From the NCBI GenBank assembly GCA_964630685.1, contig CAZVVW010000003.1, positions 32,110 through 96,109 on the forward strand: DNA of 64,000 nucleotides, read 5' to 3'. Position numbers and translations under genes: made by a program. The notes beneath the pieces were generated by a model. It ran no database searches. It worked only from the letters and a program-made list of their open reading frames with translations, and had not been told where the DNA came from. Positions 11,001 through 17,673 of the stretch are shown piece by piece. The stretch comes from an uncultured Methanosarcinales archaeon. Lineage in GTDB: Archaea > Nanobdellota > Nanobdellia > Woesearchaeales > BS150m-G63. Each line of letters opens with the position of its first letter. Within the stretch, counting starts at the first letter, position 1.

Positions 11001-11234
11001 ATGGCTGAAAAAGTAGAAAAAGCAGGAGTTAAAAAAGAAGGTGGATATCTATATTTCGTTGACAAAGCAGGAGACATCTCAAGAGCTAAAATGGCTCGAG
11101 GCGGAAGAAAAAAGGGATCTACTGGTGTTGAAAAAGTAGCAAAAGTAGGTGCTAAAAAAGAATCTGGATATCTATATTTCGTTGACAAAGCAGGAGACAT
11201 CTCAAGAGCTAAAATGGCTCGAGGAAGGAAGTGA
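11001..11234 (+). CDS. Small basic two-repeat protein (candidate nucleic-acid-binding protein)
   Basis: 77 aa, Lys/Gly-rich, two copies of EKVxKxGxKKExGYLYFVDKAGDISRAKMARG; GGGGTA SD-like motif upstream. Confidence 0.88.
   Translation: MAEKVEKAGVKKEGGYLYFVDKAGDISRAKMARGGRKKGSTGVEKVAKVGAKKESGYLYFVDKAGDISRAKMARGRK
11042..11224 (+). repeat. Intragenic 60-bp perfect direct repeat, period 123 bp
   Basis: 11042-11101 is identical to 11165-11224. Confidence 0.95.
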
Positions 11235-11278: not shown

Positions 11279-11338
11279 GATATATAAATTCTTAAATAAT
11301 CTGATTAATTTCTTAATAAAAGGGTGTGTGGGGAAATA

Positions 11339-12544
11339 ATGAAATTTGCACATTTGGCAGATTGCCATATAGGAGCTTGGAAAGATCCAAAACTAAGAAA
11401 TGCTAATAGTAGAGCATTTACTAAGGCAATAGAGCTATGCATAGATAAAAAAGTAGATTTTATACTTATTAGTGGAGATTTGTTTAACACTTCTCTTCCA
11501 AGTTTGGATTTATTGAAGTTGGTAGTTATCAAACTTAAAGGGTTGAGAGATTTAAACATTCCTGTGTATGTTGTTCCGGGAAGTCATGATTTTTCTCCAA
11601 GTGGGAAAACTATTTTGGATGTTCTTGAAAAGGCAGATTTATTGATTAATGTGTTTAAAGGAAAAGTTGTTAAAAAAAGATTGGTGTTAGAATTTACGAC
11701 AGATAAAAAAACAGGCGCAAAAATAACAGGGATTATGGGTCGAAAAGGAATGTTAGAAAAACATATTTACCAAACTCTTGATAAAAAAATCCTTGAAGAA
11801 GAAAAAGGGTATAAGATTTTTATGTTTCATACTGCATTAACAGAATATAAACCTAAAGAGTTGAAACTGATGGAATCTGCCCCTGCCTCATTTTTGCCTA
11901 AAAATTTTGATTATTATGCTGGAGGGCATGTACATTATGTTTTTGAAAAAAAAGAAGGGAAGAGTGTTTTAGTTTATCCAGGACCTTTGTTCCCTAATAA
12001 TTTTAGAGAAATAGAACATTTAGGGGTTGGAAGTCTTTATATTGTAACTGATGGTAAACCAGAGTTTTATCCTATCCAAGTTTATCCTCCTCTTAGTTTG
12101 CACGTAAATGGGGAAGACAAAATTCCTGAACAAATTGAGGAAGAAATTAAAGAGATTATAAAAAATAAAGAATTTAATAACACTATTGTTACAATTAGGG
12201 TTAGTGGAAAATTAAAATCAGGAAAACCAAGTGACATTAATTTTAAATCTATATTTGCTGAGCTTTATCTTAAATCTGCTTATTTTGTAATGAAATCTAC
12301 TTCTATGTTGAGTTCAAAAGAATTTGAAGGTATTGTGATTGACGAATGTTCTACGGGGGATATTGAAGAGAATTTAATAAATAAGAGTTTAGAACAAAAT
12401 GGAGAAGTTTCAAAAAATGATTTAATCAAATCATTAATAATTTTATTAAATAGAGAAAAAGGGGAAGGGGAAACTGTAAATGATTTTGAGCGTCGCGTAA
12501 AAGAAGATTCCCTTAAGGTGTTAGGTGTGGACAAGTTATTCTAA
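11339..12544 (+). CDS. mre11: Mre11/SbcD-like DNA repair nuclease
   Basis: HLADCH, SGDLF, PGSHD, MFHT, GHVH and YPG phosphoesterase motifs plus capping domain. Confidence 0.88.
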   Translation: MKFAHLADCHIGAWKDPKLRNANSRAFTKAIELCIDKKVDFILISGDLFNTSLPSLDLLKLVVIKLKGLRDLNIPVYVVPGSHDFSPSGKTILDVLEKADLLINVFKGKVVKKRLVLEFTTDKKTGAKITGIMGRKGMLEKHIYQTLDKKILEEEKGYKIFMFHTALTEYKPKELKLMESAPASFLPKNFDYYAGGHVHYVFEKKEGKSVLVYPGPLFPNNFREIEHLGVGSLYIVTDGKPEFYPIQVYPPLSLHVNGEDKIPEQIEEEIKEIIKNKEFNNTIVTIRVSGKLKSGKPSDINFKSIFAELYLKSAYFVMKSTSMLSSKEFEGIVIDECSTGDIEENLINKSLEQNGEVSKNDLIKSLIILLNREKGEGETVNDFERRVKEDSLKVLGVDKLF

Positions 12545-12578
12545 GAACATTTAAATAGTACCTTAAATCTGTTATTTT

Positions 12579-12812
12579 ATGGTAAAAGAATCAAAAGATG
12601 AACAAATTGGTTTTCATAAAGGTTCGCTTTCAACATTGGCTAAAGAAAGACAAGAACTGCAAAGAATTCTTCAAATAGTTGAACAATTAATGCAGATACA
12701 TGTGTCTTCTTTAAAGGATTTGGGGGTAGATCTTTCTGAAGAAATAGAGCAAACAGCAGGGGAAACTGGTGACAAAAAAGCACCAAAAAAGCCAATAGAA
12801 GATTTACTTTGA
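12579..12812 (+). CDS. Small uncharacterised coiled-coil protein
   Basis: 77 aa with helical QIGFHKGSLSTLAKERQEL..LMQIH..L..LGV; coding-like composition. Confidence 0.75.
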   Translation: MVKESKDEQIGFHKGSLSTLAKERQELQRILQIVEQLMQIHVSSLKDLGVDLSEEIEQTAGETGDKKAPKKPIEDLL

Positions 12813-12903
12813 TTGGTTTTTGGGATTTCTTAATTAGTTTTGTTTGTTTAGGTAGTTTAATTTTTAATGTAAATTAGTAAAATCTTTACTAAATAGTGGT
12901 TAC

Positions 12904-12922
12904 AGACGAAAACTTTAAATAT
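12904..12922 (+). promoter_or_regulatory. BRE-TATA promoter upstream of the HD/synthetase/methyltransferase cassette
   Basis: agacgaaaactttaaatat ~40 bp before ATG 12965; matches the motif at 10931. Confidence 0.65.
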
Positions 12923-12964
12923 ATTCGACTCTAATTTAGAGATATAACTAGAATATATTAGAAA

Positions 12965-14251
12965 ATGAAGAATCTGCTTGAAAAATTTGATGATTTAAAA
13001 GAAACCCGTTCTGATGAAGTGTTAGAAGAAAAACTAAACAAACACCCTTATGACACACTATTAAATTTAGTAGAATATGGGCGATTGCTTAATGAATCTG
13101 ATAATATAAAAAATGAGCTTGTTTATGCTATTCTAGATATTAATCCTGCAAAGTTTGTGAAGCAAGATGGGACCAAACTCCTTGGAGATTATATAAATAA
13201 GATAGTAAAGGTGGAGGGTATTAATGTGAGAACTATTGATGCTTTTAATAATTTATTTCATAGAAATATACAAAAAAGATTTTCTGATGAAACTTTGAGA
13301 ACAATTCATCTTCAAACTTATCTTAGGGGTATGGGGAAGGAATTGGTGGAAAAGGTTTTTGGAAAAGGAACTTACTCTTTTTTTGATTTTGCTTATAAAA
13401 CTCATCTTAAAACAAAAGAAATGAGAGCATTAAAAAACACTTATTTTGCGCACCCAGTAAGGATTGCGCACCAATTAAAATCTTATAATCTCCCTAAAGA
13501 GTATATTTTAGTTGCATTATTACATGATGTTATAGAATCTATGCAGAAACAAAGAAAAAAAGATAAGGGTACATTATCAGACAAAATGAAAAAAGATAAA
13601 GGTGTGACTAATCAAGAAAAAATAAAATTGTATGATGATATGGCTGAAATTAATTATAAATTAAAAAATCCACCCGAATATAAACAGATTGAAAGAAAAT
13701 CTTATCATGGACAAAATGTTGGGAAAAGAATCATTGAGCCATTGAAAGCTGTCAGTAATGATTCAAAAATTGATTATGAAGATTATATTATAAAGCTATA
13801 CTTTAAATCTGAGAATTGCAAACATGGGGATAATGAAGGGATATGTGATATTGCACCCATTGTTAAACTGCAAGATGCAATTGATAATACAGAATCTTTA
13901 TATGGTATTGGTGGAAAGGCTCAATTAGAAAGGCTTGGCAGGAATGTAATTTTAAGTAATCACACTTATTCTTTTTTACAAAGAAATCAGATATCTAAAA
14001 AAGATAATTTTTTAATGTGGAATAGGATTGAAAAATTAATATATCTTTCAGCAACTAAAACAGAAGAGTATGAATCAATTTATTTGTTAAAATCTAAAAC
14101 TGTCAAAGATAAGATATTAATTAAAAATCATTATGATTCAAATCTTATTTATGCGTCAAACCGTTTTTCAGAAATTAGTTTAGGGGTAAAATCTATTGCC
14201 GAAAAAGTGCTTCCAAGAGAAATATTGAGAAACCTTTATGGTGGGAGATGA
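12965..14251 (+). CDS. RelA/SpoT-type HD-domain (alarmone hydrolase-like) protein
   Basis: R..KNTYFAHPVRIA, VALLHDVIES and IVKLQDAIDN match the RSH/Mesh1 HD signature (PY..HP..VA; ALLHD..ED; KLAD..DN). Confidence 0.75.
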   Translation: MKNLLEKFDDLKETRSDEVLEEKLNKHPYDTLLNLVEYGRLLNESDNIKNELVYAILDINPAKFVKQDGTKLLGDYINKIVKVEGINVRTIDAFNNLFHRNIQKRFSDETLRTIHLQTYLRGMGKELVEKVFGKGTYSFFDFAYKTHLKTKEMRALKNTYFAHPVRIAHQLKSYNLPKEYILVALLHDVIESMQKQRKKDKGTLSDKMKKDKGVTNQEKIKLYDDMAEINYKLKNPPEYKQIERKSYHGQNVGKRIIEPLKAVSNDSKIDYEDYIIKLYFKSENCKHGDNEGICDIAPIVKLQDAIDNTESLYGIGGKAQLERLGRNVILSNHTYSFLQRNQISKKDNFLMWNRIEKLIYLSATKTEEYESIYLLKSKTVKDKILIKNHYDSNLIYASNRFSEISLGVKSIAEKVLPREILRNLYGGR

Positions 14252-14258
14252 ATAACAA

Positions 14259-15245
14259 ATGTTAGAGAAAAAAATCAGTGAACTTTTAGTATATGTGGCA
14301 GATCCATTTAATGAACATAATTTGGATTCTCAAGATTATAGGATCATTAGAAAACAATTGAAAAATAGTTTTGAAATAGGTTACTCTTTATTGGATGAAT
14401 TGCGTTTAGATTGCGTGAATAATAATGGCCACATATCTAATTTTGAGCAATATCAAATAAATAATCCTTATGAATTACTAAAGATGATGATGATGAAAAG
14501 GCCGACCAGATTGAGACAAAAAATACAAAAATATTATCGTCTGTATCACAAGGTGGGGAATAATAATAAAAAAAGGGTTCCTTTGTCTAAATTAAGTGAA
14601 GATGAACTTAAGGTAATTGACCTTTCGAGATATACTCATCGGTGGAGGCAAGAAGTTGAAAAAAGACATAGGCCTGTTTATTCTAGTTTTGATGTTCTTA
14701 AAAAAAGAAAATTGGCTAAAGCAGAAGCGTATGTTCAAAAAAATAAGAATTTATGTAATCGCCCCCATGCAATATTTCAAAGGCAGAAACGTAGAAAAAG
14801 AATCATTGAGAAATTGGTTAAAAAAATAATAGATGAAAAAGATAGAGTTAGTAAAAAAGACGAATTTGATCCGGCTAACTGTTATGTTGAAGATTTTTTT
14901 GGGTTGAAAGTGTGTTGTACAGATTGGAATCCTAATAGTATTAATAGTCTATTGTATGGTTCAAAAACTAATAAATGGATTGTAGATAGTTTTGTTGATC
15001 ACAGGAAAGATGTTGATAAAAATATTAACCACATCAAATATTATTTACATAAAAGAGGAGAACCGGGAGTTCCTTTAGAACTGCAGTTTACAACCATCAA
15101 TGATTTTCTTTTAGATGAGTTTTTTAGTGCAGAAAATCATGTACATTATACGGGAAAAAGGAGAACAGAGATGAAAAAATACAAAAAAATGAAGGAATAT
15201 AAAGTGATGGAAGGGAGGTTGCAAAAAGCTCTTTCTTTTTTGTAG
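14259..15245 (+). CDS. Divergent RelA/SpoT synthetase-domain (SAS-like) nucleotidyltransferase
   Basis: RQKRRKRIIEK, EDFFGLKV, NHIKY, LELQFTT and AENHVHY in the order of the RSH SYNTH motifs (RxK..S..K; D..G.R; Y.S.H; E.Q.RT; H..Y). Confidence 0.7.
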   Translation: MLEKKISELLVYVADPFNEHNLDSQDYRIIRKQLKNSFEIGYSLLDELRLDCVNNNGHISNFEQYQINNPYELLKMMMMKRPTRLRQKIQKYYRLYHKVGNNNKKRVPLSKLSEDELKVIDLSRYTHRWRQEVEKRHRPVYSSFDVLKKRKLAKAEAYVQKNKNLCNRPHAIFQRQKRRKRIIEKLVKKIIDEKDRVSKKDEFDPANCYVEDFFGLKVCCTDWNPNSINSLLYGSKTNKWIVDSFVDHRKDVDKNINHIKYYLHKRGEPGVPLELQFTTINDFLLDEFFSAENHVHYTGKRRTEMKKYKKMKEYKVMEGRLQKALSFL

Positions 15246-15251
15246 GTTAAT

Positions 15252-15878
15252 ATGGATAAGGAATTATTTTTTAAACAAGTTAAAGAATTCGATAAAATGG
15301 CAGCTAAACTAACCCTTGCTGCTGCTCGGAATAATTTTTTTGTGCTTAATTCTAATAATTCTTCGATTGGTGTTAGGTGGTTAAATGAAAAAATACTTTT
15401 TGATGCTATTGAAAAAGCAGGGAAGGGTTTGGATAAGCCCACTTTTGTGGATCCTTGTTGTGGCTATGGGGTTTCGTTGGTTTTTGGAGCTAAATTAGGT
15501 TATGAAGTTTATGGTTCTGACATTGAAAATATGATGGTGAAGGTAGCTGATAAAATGACTTCTAATTTAGAAAAATATGGGATTATCCCTGAGGGAAATA
15601 TCAAAAAAATAACTGTTGGCGATATGTTGGATTTGAAAAATTATATTTCTTTAGGGGTGGGTTTTTCAGAAGTTGATATTTTTTATGATTATACATTTAG
15701 GGGTATGCAAGAAAAGTTTTTTCATTTATTTTCTGATTCTGCTAAAAAAGGAGCCAAATTAGTTCATGTTCCAGGATATAAGAAAATGAAAAGGGATTCT
15801 TTATTGGATCTTATGGGTAATATAGAACTAAATTATGAACATCCTGATAATATTTATCAGATTTATACTAAAAAATAA
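15252..15878 (+). CDS. Class I SAM-dependent methyltransferase
   Basis: FVDPCCGYG motif I, GSDIE motif II, VGDM, DIFYDY post-motif. Confidence 0.85.
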   Translation: MDKELFFKQVKEFDKMAAKLTLAAARNNFFVLNSNNSSIGVRWLNEKILFDAIEKAGKGLDKPTFVDPCCGYGVSLVFGAKLGYEVYGSDIENMMVKVADKMTSNLEKYGIIPEGNIKKITVGDMLDLKNYISLGVGFSEVDIFYDYTFRGMQEKFFHLFSDSAKKGAKLVHVPGYKKMKRDSLLDLMGNIELNYEHPDNIYQIYTKK

Positions 15879-15879
15879 T

Positions 15880-16338
15880 TTAATTAGAAACAACCCGCAA
15901 TCTTCTTTCTTTTGGAACATAATTAAGTATTACTCCTTGTTTATATCTTCCACATCCCAAAATATCTTTTTTGTGTTTTAATATTACAAAACCTAGAGAT
16001 TTGAATTCTTTAGTTATATCTTGTCCAGTTAACCATTCTTCAGCTTCTTTATCATTTAATTCTATAACATTTTTAGTTGCTTTTTTTCCAATCATTTGAC
16101 TGCCTTCAATAGATAATCTAACTTCCTCTCGTTTATATTCTCCAAAATATAATCCAATAGAATCTATTCTCAATTTTTCTAAGTTAATTTTTGCTAAATC
16201 TTTATTAATTATGTAAAGTCTATTTCTTTGATTCATTAAGAAAACATAATCTAATTTTTCTTTAAATCCAAATTGGGCTTCTAAAATTTGTAGAATCTTT
16301 TTTATTTCTTTATTGTTTAATATTTTAAGATTATGCAT
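15880..16338 (-). CDS. NIP7/PUA-like ribosome-biogenesis protein
   Basis: IDSIGLYFG, RLSIEGSQMIG and ILGCG..K...ILNYVPKERR are typical of archaeal NIP7/RsmF-C-terminal homologs. Confidence 0.75.
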   Translation of the reverse strand: MHNLKILNNKEIKKILQILEAQFGFKEKLDYVFLMNQRNRLYIINKDLAKINLEKLRIDSIGLYFGEYKREEVRLSIEGSQMIGKKATKNVIELNDKEAEEWLTGQDITKEFKSLGFVILKHKKDILGCGRYKQGVILNYVPKERRLRVVSN

Positions 16339-16368
16339 TTTGTTTTTTTTTTGAGAAAAAATTGGAAT

Positions 16369-17673
16369 CTATATCAAAAATATATTTTCGCTTCTTTCTG
16401 AAATTTCTCCCCTTATATTTTTGGAGTATAATTCTTTGACTTCTTTTTTAGTGTAGTTGCTTAAGAGCCATGCTAATTTTATGTATGATGTTTCTGGTGT
16501 TGTATCGCAGTAGTTTCCTAACACCCCTGCGTTGGTTAGTATCCTTCCAGGAGTGTATACATTCATATCTATTCTACCATAAATTGTCTGAGAAGTCATT
16601 ACTGTGACTGTTTTTTTACATAACTCTTTTATTGTGTTTAGTATTTTTTTGTTTTCTTTTGTGAATTTATCTGAATCTATGACTGGGGTGTGGCCTAGGC
16701 CTGTTCCTTCTATAACTAATCCCTCAAAATCTTTGTAGGAATTAAATTCTTCAGCATACATTCCAGGTCTTGATTTAATCAATCCTATTTTGAGATTATT
16801 GAATAGTTTTAGTTTTAGTTTTAGTTTTAGTTTTAGTTTTGATTTTTGTTTTATGGTTTTTGGTTTATTGATTAATTCTATCTTTTTATTTTTATAATCT
16901 ACTCTTGCAATTGGATTTTTATTGATAGATCTAAAAGCATCTCTTCTTGAAGTGTGCATCTTTCTTGCATTTAGGCCATCTATGATTAGGCACTTATCAT
17001 CTTCTTGGTTCTCATGCATACAGACTGTTACTTTAGGGATTTGTGTGTTTGCTGCGAAAATACAGGCAGAGATTAAGTTTATTGCTGCGTCACTGCTTCC
17101 CCTGTCTGAACTTCTCTGTGCACCGACTAAGATTACTGGTATGTCAAGTGATTCTAAAATAAAAGATAGGGCTGCTGAAGTGTAGTGCATTGTGTCTGTG
17201 CCATGAGTTACTATTATTCCTTGAGTTCCTTTTTCTACTTCTTTTTTTATCTCTTTAGCTATAAGATTGTAATGTGCAAATCTCATATTTTCACTCATCA
17301 TGTTTCCGATTAATCTGCTCTTTATGTTTGCTATTTTTCCTAATTCTGGAAACATGGCAACCAATTCTTCTGGTTTGAATTGAGCTACAACTCCGCCTGT
17401 TTTGTAATCTACCTTAGAAGCTATTGTTCCGCCAGTGTGTAAAATTGTTATGTTTGGAAGTTTTTGATTCTTTTTTACTTTTGGTTTGTTTGTTTGTTTT
17501 GGTTTTATTGTTTTTAATGATTTTATAGAGATTATGTTTCTTTTTTTAATGCCTATGTTATATCCATTATCTAATTTAATAAAATAGAATTCTTTTTCTT
17601 TTGGCATAAGGATACCTTTGATTGTTTCATCCTTAAGTTTTAATTCGACTAAGTCACCTGCTTTAGCTTCCAT
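16369..17673 (-). CDS. gatD: Glu-tRNA(Gln) amidotransferase subunit D
   Basis: HTGGTIASKVDY, HGTDTM, GAQRSSDR and KMHTSRRDAF asparaginase-like motifs plus the GatD N-terminal domain. Confidence 0.96.
   Translation of the reverse strand: MEAKAGDLVELKLKDETIKGILMPKEKEFYFIKLDNGYNIGIKKRNIISIKSLKTIKPKQTNKPKVKKNQKLPNITILHTGGTIASKVDYKTGGVVAQFKPEELVAMFPELGKIANIKSRLIGNMMSENMRFAHYNLIAKEIKKEVEKGTQGIIVTHGTDTMHYTSAALSFILESLDIPVILVGAQRSSDRGSSDAAINLISACIFAANTQIPKVTVCMHENQEDDKCLIIDGLNARKMHTSRRDAFRSINKNPIARVDYKNKKIELINKPKTIKQKSKLKLKLKLKLKLFNNLKIGLIKSRPGMYAEEFNSYKDFEGLVIEGTGLGHTPVIDSDKFTKENKKILNTIKELCKKTVTVMTSQTIYGRIDMNVYTPGRILTNAGVLGNYCDTTPETSYIKLAWLLSNYTKKEVKELYSKNIRGEISERSENIFLI
16804..16839. repeat. In-frame hexamer microsatellite (TAGTTT)x6 encoding a poly-(KL) run in gatD
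   Basis: Six perfect copies; protein reads KSKLKLKLKLKLKLF. Confidence 0.95.

Follow-up and report, generated by a model that had tools for sequence, protein, structure and literature searches.

Does a cluster of three genes in a DPANN archaeon encode a RelA/SpoT homologue (RSH) system, and what might such a system do there? RSH enzymes play a central part in the stress physiology of bacteria and, as toxic small alarmone synthetases (toxSAS), in phage defence. The cluster studied here lies on contig CAZVVW010000003.1 (GCA_964630685.1), of which we analysed a 64,000-nt stretch, positions 32,110-96,109 of the forward strand, hereafter called the window. Its genes 1, 2 and 3 are co-oriented, with gaps of 7 nt between genes 1 and 2 and 6 nt between genes 2 and 3, as an initial annotation had described. 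That annotation had read gene 1 as carrying the HD signature of an RSH hydrolase, gene 2 the motifs of an RSH synthetase and gene 3 a class I S-adenosylmethionine (SAM) fold, and had suggested that all three form an undescribed system of nucleotide signalling, defence or host manipulation. Profile and structure searches verified the three assignments; the direct Pfam and NCBIfam matches were all sub-threshold. Judging from their sequences, genes 1 and 2 are very probably RSH-type homologues that form a conserved pair. The slot of the methyltransferase is variable, and we see this gene as an accessory passenger.

Gene 2 escapes ordinary searches. As a single sequence it returned nothing meaningful from Pfam, NCBIfam, PADLOC or the sequences of the PDB, and only three relatives besides itself were found among 5.8 billion proteins. 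The profile of these 4 sequences had no match in the PDB, and an AlphaFold2 model based on them reached a mean predicted local distance difference test score (pLDDT) of only 42. An exhaustive profile search then yielded 39 further, more distant relatives. The column counts, PDB profile and AlphaFold2 model given below were all built on a 33-sequence family alignment, and clade sub-alignments were used for locus searches with the gene 2 relatives. The top six PDB matches of the 33-member profile were all small alarmone synthetases (SAS; RelP/YwaC 6fgk at E 2.8e-4, 6ewz, 6fgj and RelQ/YjbM among them). The AlphaFold2 model from the same alignment (pLDDT 90.9, predicted TM-score 0.87) has, over residues 155-310, the secondary-structure order of the SAS core. 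When it was compared with the PDB by Foldseek, the top ~45 matches were all RSH synthetase domains (RelP, RelQ, CapRel, RelSeq, Rel, SpoT, Tas1 and RelA), with E-values down to 1.1e-4 and a probability of 1.0; among viral proteins, the matches included phage RelA/SpoT and YjbM. Thus the fold that the initial annotation had predicted was recovered by both profile and structure, where a non-RSH fold would have spoken against it. A third test points the same way: RelA_SpoT (PF04607), the profile to which that annotation had also pointed, is the Pfam family with the largest number of matching gene 2 members, though these are only 3 of the 33 and below threshold (best E 3.4e-4). Gene 2 of the window itself has no PF04607 or NCBIfam match.

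Several columns of the family are strongly conserved. K177 and D212 are present in all 33 sequences, K185 and K/R217 in 32 and G215 in 29; position 175 is R in 28 and K in 5, and position 294 is H in 28 and R in 5. Gene 2 carries the ATP-phosphate motif R-x-K-x3-S-x3-K (R175/K177/K185) and the Mg2+ Asp of D212-x-x-G215-x-K217, and we take its predicted nucleotide/Mg2+ site to be maintained. Alignment with Escherichia coli SpoT and RelA by hhalign was weak overall (E 0.046) because that template holds only two sequences. It paired D212 with SpoT D259, D247 with the DYI motif, Y261 with the G-loop Tyr of GYQSLH (SpoT Y303) and L-E274-L-Q276-F-T-T with SpoT V-E319-V-Q-I-R-T. The Y261 column holds Y in 25 of the 33 sequences and an aromatic residue or His in another 6; in the HMMER alignment to RelP there is a two-residue shift here. 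Residues 1-150 are helical, with conserved motifs of their own (ADP[FY] and YTHxW) and no detectable relative. They are constrained to a similar degree as the synthetase-like half (omega 0.18 vs 0.15).

Gene 1 gave direct library matches that are sub-threshold but, by the families that were hit, RSH-specific. It matched TIGR00691 (spoT_relA) at E 6.6e-7 with 28 bits against a cut-off of 499, HD_4 (PF13328) at E 0.0018 with 18.5 bits against a cut-off of 27.2, and the generic HD profile at E 0.12; no RSH hydrolase profile was matched at its curated threshold. A profile of the window clade was more telling. Of its 15 PDB matches, 12 were RSH hydrolase domains (SpoT 7qps at E 4.5e-4, Lmo0812, Rel and Mesh1). 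When all HD partners were merged in one alignment this signal was diluted to E 0.1-0.3, and the window-clade profile is thus the better evidence for gene 1. By hhalign, gene 1 aligned with SpoT/RelA at a probability of 72.6% and E 3.2e-5, with 37% identity over 51 columns that place TYFAHPVRIAH...ALLHDVIES on PYITHPVAVAC...ALLHDVIED. Among all open reading frames (ORFs) of the window, gene 1 was the one that E. coli SpoT matched best. The metal ligands H163, H187, D188 and D304 make up the H...HD...D set in an RSH-specific context; R154, Y160, P164, E191 and N308 are also present, and VKLQDAIDNT is the counterpart of the RSH block KLADRLHN.

Do the two genes belong together? To describe the neighbourhood we use L numbers for independent relative loci recovered in a survey, with the window as the reference locus. 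The survey recovered 16 independent loci; neighbours were counted on 15, and the HD gene on the 14 that have upstream DNA, a small sample derived from metagenomes. In 14 of these 14, an HD-type gene of 393-605 aa lies directly upstream of the gene 2 homologue, at a distance of -4 to +71 nt, as in the tight bi- or tricistrons of toxSAS modules. Neither gene 1 (428 aa) nor its counterparts are thus of the size of a small alarmone hydrolase (SAH), a single domain of ~180-200 aa. The upstream partner is recognizable as a gene 1 homologue in L001, L004 (a fragment), L005, L006, L008 and L020. Other partners show RSH-style motifs: GGPYETHP...IIQHDIMEN in L012, LLHDKIEE in L011, LLRHDDVEG in L010, LFHDDVED in L018, AILHDVPEE in L019 and LVHDLGEE in L007. 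The HD dyad appears degenerate in L009, with R-D at the aligned position. Neither BLAST nor a small hidden Markov model linked the HD partners of clade b to gene 1; they are tied to it by motifs, by position and by the partner in L020, which forms a bridge between gene 1 and that of L012. The gene 2 homologue of L012 had looked frameshifted, and we rejected this because the break is a masked run of N.

The co-occurrence of all three genes, which the initial annotation had named as a check, held only for the pair. Gene 3 itself is a class I methyltransferase, with motif I V66-D-P-C-C-G71-Y-G73 (VDPCCGYG), D90 and G123-D124. Its family profile had 63 matches in the PDB, nearly all of them class I methyltransferases (best 1ve3, E 1.4e-5), and its individual Pfam matches were below the cut-off. 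Among the 15 loci, the third slot holds a methyltransferase in 5 (the window, L001, L004, L007 and L012), a GNAT gene in L011 and a common small ORF in L008 and L010, and it is empty in 7. As a methyltransferase is absent or replaced in 10 of the 15 loci, we reject it as an obligate third component, the role in which it had been cast. In E. coli, trmH, encoding the tRNA Gm18 methyltransferase, lies 6 bp after spoT (NC_000913.3 3822400-3825204, L013), and relA adjoins rlmD, encoding a 23S rRNA methyltransferase (L014). Thus an RNA methyltransferase beside an RSH gene is no evidence of a novel three-component system.

The cassette was also said to be inserted between housekeeping blocks. The flanks are indeed housekeeping genes; the insertion did not hold up, because the same slot is occupied in all relatives and the synonymous divergence (dS) is like that of the flanks. 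In a comparison of the window with L001, from a Woesearchaeota metagenome-assembled genome, protein identity is 79-95% in the flanks, 44% in gene 1, 75% in gene 2 and 68% in gene 3, and nucleotide identity falls sharply at the ATG of gene 1. This drop had raised the idea that gene 1 was swapped in by recombination. We reject this idea: dS lies between 0.6 and 1.1 for all genes alike, flanks included, and at 0.93 for gene 1 it equals that of the flanks. Equal dS across cassette and flanks indicates that the genes diverged in place. From the same comparison, the ratio of nonsynonymous to synonymous divergence (dN/dS), which is rough because dS is near saturation, is 0.49 for gene 1 as a whole (0.67 in the N-terminal domain, 0.62 in the insert and ~0.3 in the HD core segments), 0.28 for gene 3, 0.16 for gene 2 and 0.02-0.16 for the flanking genes. 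All three genes are under purifying selection (dN/dS <1), and gene 1 evolves at ~6x the rate of its neighbours.

The site is syntenic in all relatives, across lineages down to ~25% identity of gene 2. No gene 2 relative was found in viral contigs, phages or plasmids, genes 1 and 2 had no PADLOC match, and the window contains no canonical RSH gene or paralogue of gene 1 or gene 2. On the first two of these grounds, and because the chromosomal locus is fixed, we rejected the cassette as a mobile or defence element, and the defence or host-manipulation reading of the initial annotation falls with it. The patchy, mobile, defence-island setting of toxSAS modules is not seen here; the locus is fixed and syntenic, and its dS is that of the flanks. 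All named family members belong to Candidatus Woesearchaeota or Nanoarchaeia, apart from one bin labelled Methanosarcinales. Outside DPANN archaea (Woesearchaeota/Nanoarchaeia) the family has not been seen so far.

The most constant other neighbour had been overlooked in the initial annotation. An orthologue of the Nip7-like PUA-domain gene that faces gene 3 in the window adjoins the HD-synthetase pair in 13 of the 15 loci, with 42-56% identity. In the window its stop codon is 1 nt from that of gene 3. In two distant clades it is on the same strand as the gene 2 homologue and overlaps it, by 46 nt in L018 and by ATGA in L020; thus it is an operon member there. The linkage persists despite an upstream context that is specific to each clade, an Mre11-like gene and a 77-aa gene in one and an Asn-synthase-like gene and a DUF371 gene in the other. 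The 77-aa ORF upstream of gene 1 keeps 63-91% identity across all loci, including 63-66% in L018, L019 and L020, where gene 2 has fallen to ~25%, and usually lies directly upstream of the HD gene (19 nt from it in L018). Its core is EQIGFHKGSLSTLAKERQELQRILQIVEQLMQMH...LKDLGVDL, and it has no relative in Pfam, NCBIfam or the PDB. It could belong to the module as a fourth component, or be a conserved small protein with no connection to it. The features of the locus are collected in Table 1.

Table 1. Features of the locus (window coordinates)
Feature	Position	Strand	Remarks
Gene 1: RSH-type HD phosphohydrolase homologue	12965-14251	+	428 aa; N-terminal domain 1-140, HD core ~141-345 including ~50-aa insert, C-terminal region 346-428
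Gene 2: RSH synthetase-fold (RelA_SpoT-like) protein	14259-15245	+	328 aa; unique helical N-terminal region 1-150, synthetase-fold domain ~150-328
Gene 3: class I SAM-dependent methyltransferase, lineage-variable accessory	15252-15878	+	208 aa
Nip7-like PUA-domain RNA-binding protein	15880-16338	-	convergent to gene 3; PF13636 PUA, E 9e-11
77-aa conserved small protein, possible fourth module member	12579-12812	+	directly upstream of gene 1; conserved in distant loci
Conserved upstream regulatory block, palindrome + BRE/TATA	12860-12924	+	65 nt; 64/65 nt identical, window vs L001
Putative operator palindrome	12874-12892		inside the 65-nt block
Operon promoter BRE + TATA (AAAAC TTTAAATA)	12909-12921	+	pattern match and conservation in relatives
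ORF of two tandem units	11001-11234	+	77 aa
Mre11-like metallophosphoesterase	11324-12544	+	
GatD homologue	16369-17673	-	

The host-like promoter that had been noted in front of the cassette is borne out. A B recognition element (BRE) and TATA box, AAAACTTTAAATA, lie 44 nt ahead of the gene 1 ATG. Five matches to this pattern are found in the window, where 1.7 would be expected, and four of them are 23-75 nt upstream of a start codon in the correct orientation. The BRE/TATA block is kept ~40 nt upstream of the gene 1 orthologue in L001 and L006, and L008 has a variant form. The near identity of the 65-nt block to that of L001 stands out, as it is found despite a ~50% difference at synonymous sites (dS ~0.9). 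Inside the block is a perfect palindrome with 8-bp arms, TTAGTAAA-ATC-TTTACTAA, which is probably the operator for a regulator; in L006 a different inverted repeat, TGTAAC-N9-GTTACA, occupies its position. There is no second copy of the palindrome in the window, and this uniqueness gives no sign of a regulon. Shine-Dalgarno-like sequences precede gene 2 (GGTGGGAG) and gene 3 (AGGT). An Rfam search over 12500-16400 returned nothing except a chance snoRNA match (E 0.36).

Several observations were made on the wider surroundings. The Mre11-like gene (Metallophos in its L001 orthologue) is followed by the 77-aa ORF instead of a Rad50 gene, and no Rad50-sized ORF adjoins it. Further upstream, another ORF consists of two tandem units of ~35 aa (...GYLYFVDKAGDISRAKMARG... 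twice); it is 95% identical in L001 and 87% in L006 and has no Pfam match. Beyond the Nip7-like gene, the GatD homologue (GatD_N/Asparaginase in its L001 orthologue) has a low-complexity linker insertion, SKLKLKLKLKLKLF. In the second major clade (L007, L010, L011, L012 and L019), a DUF371 gene precedes the pair (E 1e-30 to 1e-35), and in L010-L012 a 302-312-aa Asn-synthase-like PP-loop ATPase gene lies ahead of the DUF371 gene; this is another conserved neighbourhood of the pair. In L018 (6534-11067) and L019 (6762-10893), from the remotest clades, the module is found among translation-related genes, those for aIF5B/IF-2, the tRNA methyltransferase Trm1, aEF-1beta and ribosomal protein aS21. 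This neighbourhood is consistent with a translation-linked role of the module and does not prove it.

What might the pair do? RSH synthetase (SYNTH) domains transfer pyrophosphate from ATP to the 3'-OH of GDP, GTP or ATP, or of the CCA end of tRNA (FaRel2, PhRel2 and CapRel), and the RSH HD enzymes ATfaRel and MESH1 reverse both nucleotide and tRNA CCA pyrophosphorylation; in FaRel2, D90 and Y128 are the conserved Mg2+ and stacking residues (bioRxiv 10.1101/2021.04.30.441581). Archaeal Nip7 binds U/AU-rich RNA via its PUA domain and inhibits 3'-5' degradation and tailing by the exosome (PMC2890523). In the model that we favour, the gene 2 enzyme would use ATP and Mg2+ and transfer pyrophosphate to the 3'-OH of an acceptor. 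Gene 1 would be the matching RSH-type Mn2+/HD pyrophosphohydrolase that strips the pyrophosphate off again. The pair would be a resident housekeeping or regulatory module of Woesearchaeota/Nanoarchaeia rather than a mobile toxin or defence cassette, and would act with the neighbouring Nip7-like PUA protein and possibly also with the 77-aa protein. The favoured acceptor is an RNA 3' end, either the tRNA CCA or an rRNA or AU-rich RNA end presented by the PUA protein, which would be reversibly pyrophosphorylated as by the tRNA-modifying toxSAS, but in physiological use.

The basis of this model differs from part to part. Fold and motif homology, the obligate HD-SYNTH pairing, the Nip7 linkage, vertical inheritance and purifying selection are directly supported; we infer the chemistry, the acceptor and the role of the pair. 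An RNA 3' end is favoured as acceptor because of the operon fusion with the PUA gene, the extra conserved domain of gene 2, its basic pI (isoelectric point, 9.7) and the methyltransferase and GNAT neighbours. A purine-nucleotide alarmone is nearly as likely, because E. coli spoT-trmH and relA-rlmD make adjacency to RNA genes non-decisive. Taken as a whole, a vertically inherited, divergent split-RSH pyrophosphokinase/hydrolase pair that is tied to RNA/ribosome biology and acts by preference on an RNA 3' end is our tentative reading, held with somewhat less than even confidence. A more specific version, which we think unlikely, is that the pair forms a physiological, non-toxic and reversible RNA 3'-end pyrophosphorylation switch. 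The SYNTH-fold enzyme would cap the 3'-OH of tRNA, or of pre-rRNA or AU-rich ends presented by the Nip7-like protein, and the HD enzyme would uncap it; such a 3' cap would block aminoacylation, tailing or exosome attack.

A number of points weigh against the favoured model. The direct library matches of genes 1 and 2 are all below curated thresholds, and the Foldseek TM-scores of gene 2 are modest (<=0.43). The column mapped to its catalytic Glu (E274) is occupied by E in only 10 of the 33 sequences, including the window clade; 17 have Q and 6 another residue. For this Glu and for the Tyr, the alignments by HMMER and hhalign differ in register. In gene 1, the second acidic residue of HDxxED, an Asp in RSH hydrolases, is S192 in the window (E191-S192); in relatives the pair reads EE, EN or EG, except in L018, where it is the canonical ED. 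The Nip7-like gene of the window is convergent, and is not co-transcribed with the cassette. Adjacency to RNA genes does not discriminate between readings, given the E. coli examples, and the pI of gene 2 falls only in the upper quartile of this Lys-rich genome.

The same genes might instead form a small-molecule alarmone system, in which gene 2 makes (p)ppGpp or (p)ppApp from ATP and a purine nucleotide, gene 1 degrades it, and the product serves as a stringent-like signal. That signal might control ribosome biogenesis, which would account for the Nip7 neighbourhood. This would be the default activity of the fold; RelP and RelQ in complex with pppGpp or GTP are the nearest structures, the putative equivalent of the G-loop Tyr (Y261) is kept in most of the family, the ATP/Mg2+ residues are invariant, the HD partner resembles the SpoT and Mesh1 hydrolases, and E. 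coli spoT and relA likewise adjoin RNA methyltransferase genes. However, an alarmone leaves the operon overlap with the PUA gene and the extra 150-aa domain of gene 2 unexplained, and also the change from E to Q at the catalytic position in half of the family, and canonical RelA/SpoT is additionally reported in many Woesearchaeota (PMC8407392). We regard an alarmone system as possible, if on balance doubtful.

Another explanation is that the RSH folds were kept while their chemistry was changed or lost. Gene 2 might then be a nucleotidyltransferase, an AMPylase or a non-catalytic RNA- or nucleotide-binding subunit. Within a Nip7-associated ribosome-biogenesis complex, gene 1 might be either a pseudoenzyme or an HD phosphohydrolase of a generic type. 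In favour of this, 23 of the 33 family members have Q, S, T, C or M in place of E274, the HD dyad of L009 is apparently degenerate, and the family shows ES, EE, EN or EG where ED would stand. As the case of MESH1 illustrates, an RSH hydrolase can accept other substrates, such as NADPH (bioRxiv 10.1101/2021.04.30.441581), and the divergence is extreme, with no Pfam-level match. We nevertheless consider a change or loss of chemistry rather improbable. The invariance of K177 and D212 and the near invariance of K185, G215, K/R217 and H294 argue for a maintained nucleotide-Mg2+ site, the four metal ligands are intact in gene 1 of the window, and dN/dS is 0.15 in the SYNTH-like domain and ~0.3 in the HD core.

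The reading that fares worst is a toxSAS-SAH toxin-antitoxin or antiviral module of the FaRel/ATfaRel type, with gene 2 as growth-arresting toxin, gene 1 as type IV antitoxin that breaks down the toxin's product and gene 3 as a second modulator: its gene order of SAH, SAS and third gene with tiny gaps is that of ATfaRel-FaRel-AT2faRel of Cellulomonas marina (bioRxiv 10.1101/575399), gene 1 evolves fast, above all in its insert and N-terminal domain (dN/dS 0.62-0.67), a common trait of conflict genes, and the third slot is variable, but it is very improbable for a fixed locus that stays syntenic beside Nip7 down to ~25% gene 2 identity with the dS of its flanks, that has no viral, phage or plasmid copies of gene 2 and no PADLOC match for genes 1 and 2, that is single-copy in the window among translation-related housekeeping neighbours, and in which the catalytic Glu is not conserved across the gene 2 family.

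Returning to the split-RSH pair, it is helpful to set it beside the known systems. It is like the C. marina tricistron (Jimmy et al., bioRxiv 10.1101/575399) in that an RSH HD gene lies directly upstream of a SYNTH gene, followed by a third gene at tight spacing, and in the implied logic of a synthetase with a hydrolase that degrades its product. In contrast to that tricistron, the two window proteins carry extra domains, are far longer (428 and 328 aa) and reach no RSH profile threshold. Their locus is chromosomal and linked to Nip7, is syntenic and inherited vertically in DPANN archaea, and has an optional third gene, for a methyltransferase or a GNAT. RelP and RelQ (PDB 6ex0, 6fgk and 5ded) are the best profile and structure matches of gene 2, which shares their topology β1-α-β2-α-β3-β4-β5-α and the motifs R-x-K...K, D-x-x-G-x-[RK] and H..Y and apparently also Tyr and E-x-Q. 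It differs from them in an identity of only 12-18% and in TM-scores no higher than those given above, in the added 150-aa helical N-terminus, in a T for the R of E-x-Q-x-R-T and in the catalytic Glu, which is Q in half of the family.

The tRNA-pyrophosphorylating toxSAS (FaRel2, PhRel2 and CapRel; PDB 7ztb) have the same fold, CapRel is among the Foldseek matches of gene 2, and gene 2 is basic. Together with MESH1 and ATfaRel they set the precedent for a SYNTH enzyme that acts on an RNA 3' end and an HD enzyme that reverses it. However, those are toxins in mobile toxin-antitoxin or defence contexts, whereas here the context is housekeeping, the constant partner is a PUA protein and not an antitoxin, and RNA modification by gene 2 is a proposal of ours. 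The long bifunctional enzymes Rel and SpoT likewise have HD ahead of SYNTH, the gene 1 HD core resembles that of SpoT at the identity given above, and LELQFTT of gene 2 is aligned with VEVQIRT of SpoT; unlike them, the window pair has its domains split over two genes, lacks the regulatory domains TGS and ACT, and has unrelated extra regions on each half. Mesh1 and the other SAHs (PDB 3nqw, 3nr1 and 5vxa) are among the profile matches of gene 1 and share its HD_4-type H...HD...D site in the context R-x-x-G-x-x-Y-x-x-H-P. Gene 1 exceeds them more than twofold in length, its N-terminal domain and insert evolve fast, and in the window it has Ser at the second acidic position of HDxxED.

Finally, how much of this is new? 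Sporadic archaeal RSHs have been known since Atkinson 2011, and annotatable RelA/SpoT genes have been reported in 41.7% of Woesearchaeota, where they were attributed to transfer from bacteria (PMC8407392). Thus the presence of RSH genes in Woesearchaeota is not new, and the premise of the initial annotation that they are surprising in an archaeon falls away. Its claim of an undescribed RSH-type system in DPANN archaea survives in a narrower form: a divergent, obligate pair of HD and synthetase-fold genes, seen so far only in DPANN archaea and not recognized by profile libraries, without the methyltransferase, the insertion or the defence role. Our literature search found no description of a split HD+SYNTH family linked to Nip7. 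What appears to be new is a split family too divergent for any curated profile to detect gene 2, the domains added to both proteins, the alternation of Glu and Gln at the catalytic position, the lineage-wide vertical inheritance and the conserved link to Nip7.

In sum, a family that Pfam, NCBIfam and PADLOC all miss nevertheless keeps its HD and SYNTH genes together as an obligate pair across a whole DPANN lineage. Purifying selection acts on it, and it has a genetic link to an RNA-binding protein of the kind that acts in ribosome biogenesis and exosome regulation. It widens the sequence space of the RSH superfamily by a new N-terminal domain and by a Glu/Gln alternation at a supposedly essential catalytic site. 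As an expressible enzyme pair, it lets an archaeal alarmone-like or RNA-end-modification signal be tested directly. If the pair does form an RNA 3'-end switch, a chemistry so far known from toxSAS toxins alone would for the first time be seen in a housekeeping role, and archaea would have their first RSH-type system that is inherited vertically across a lineage.

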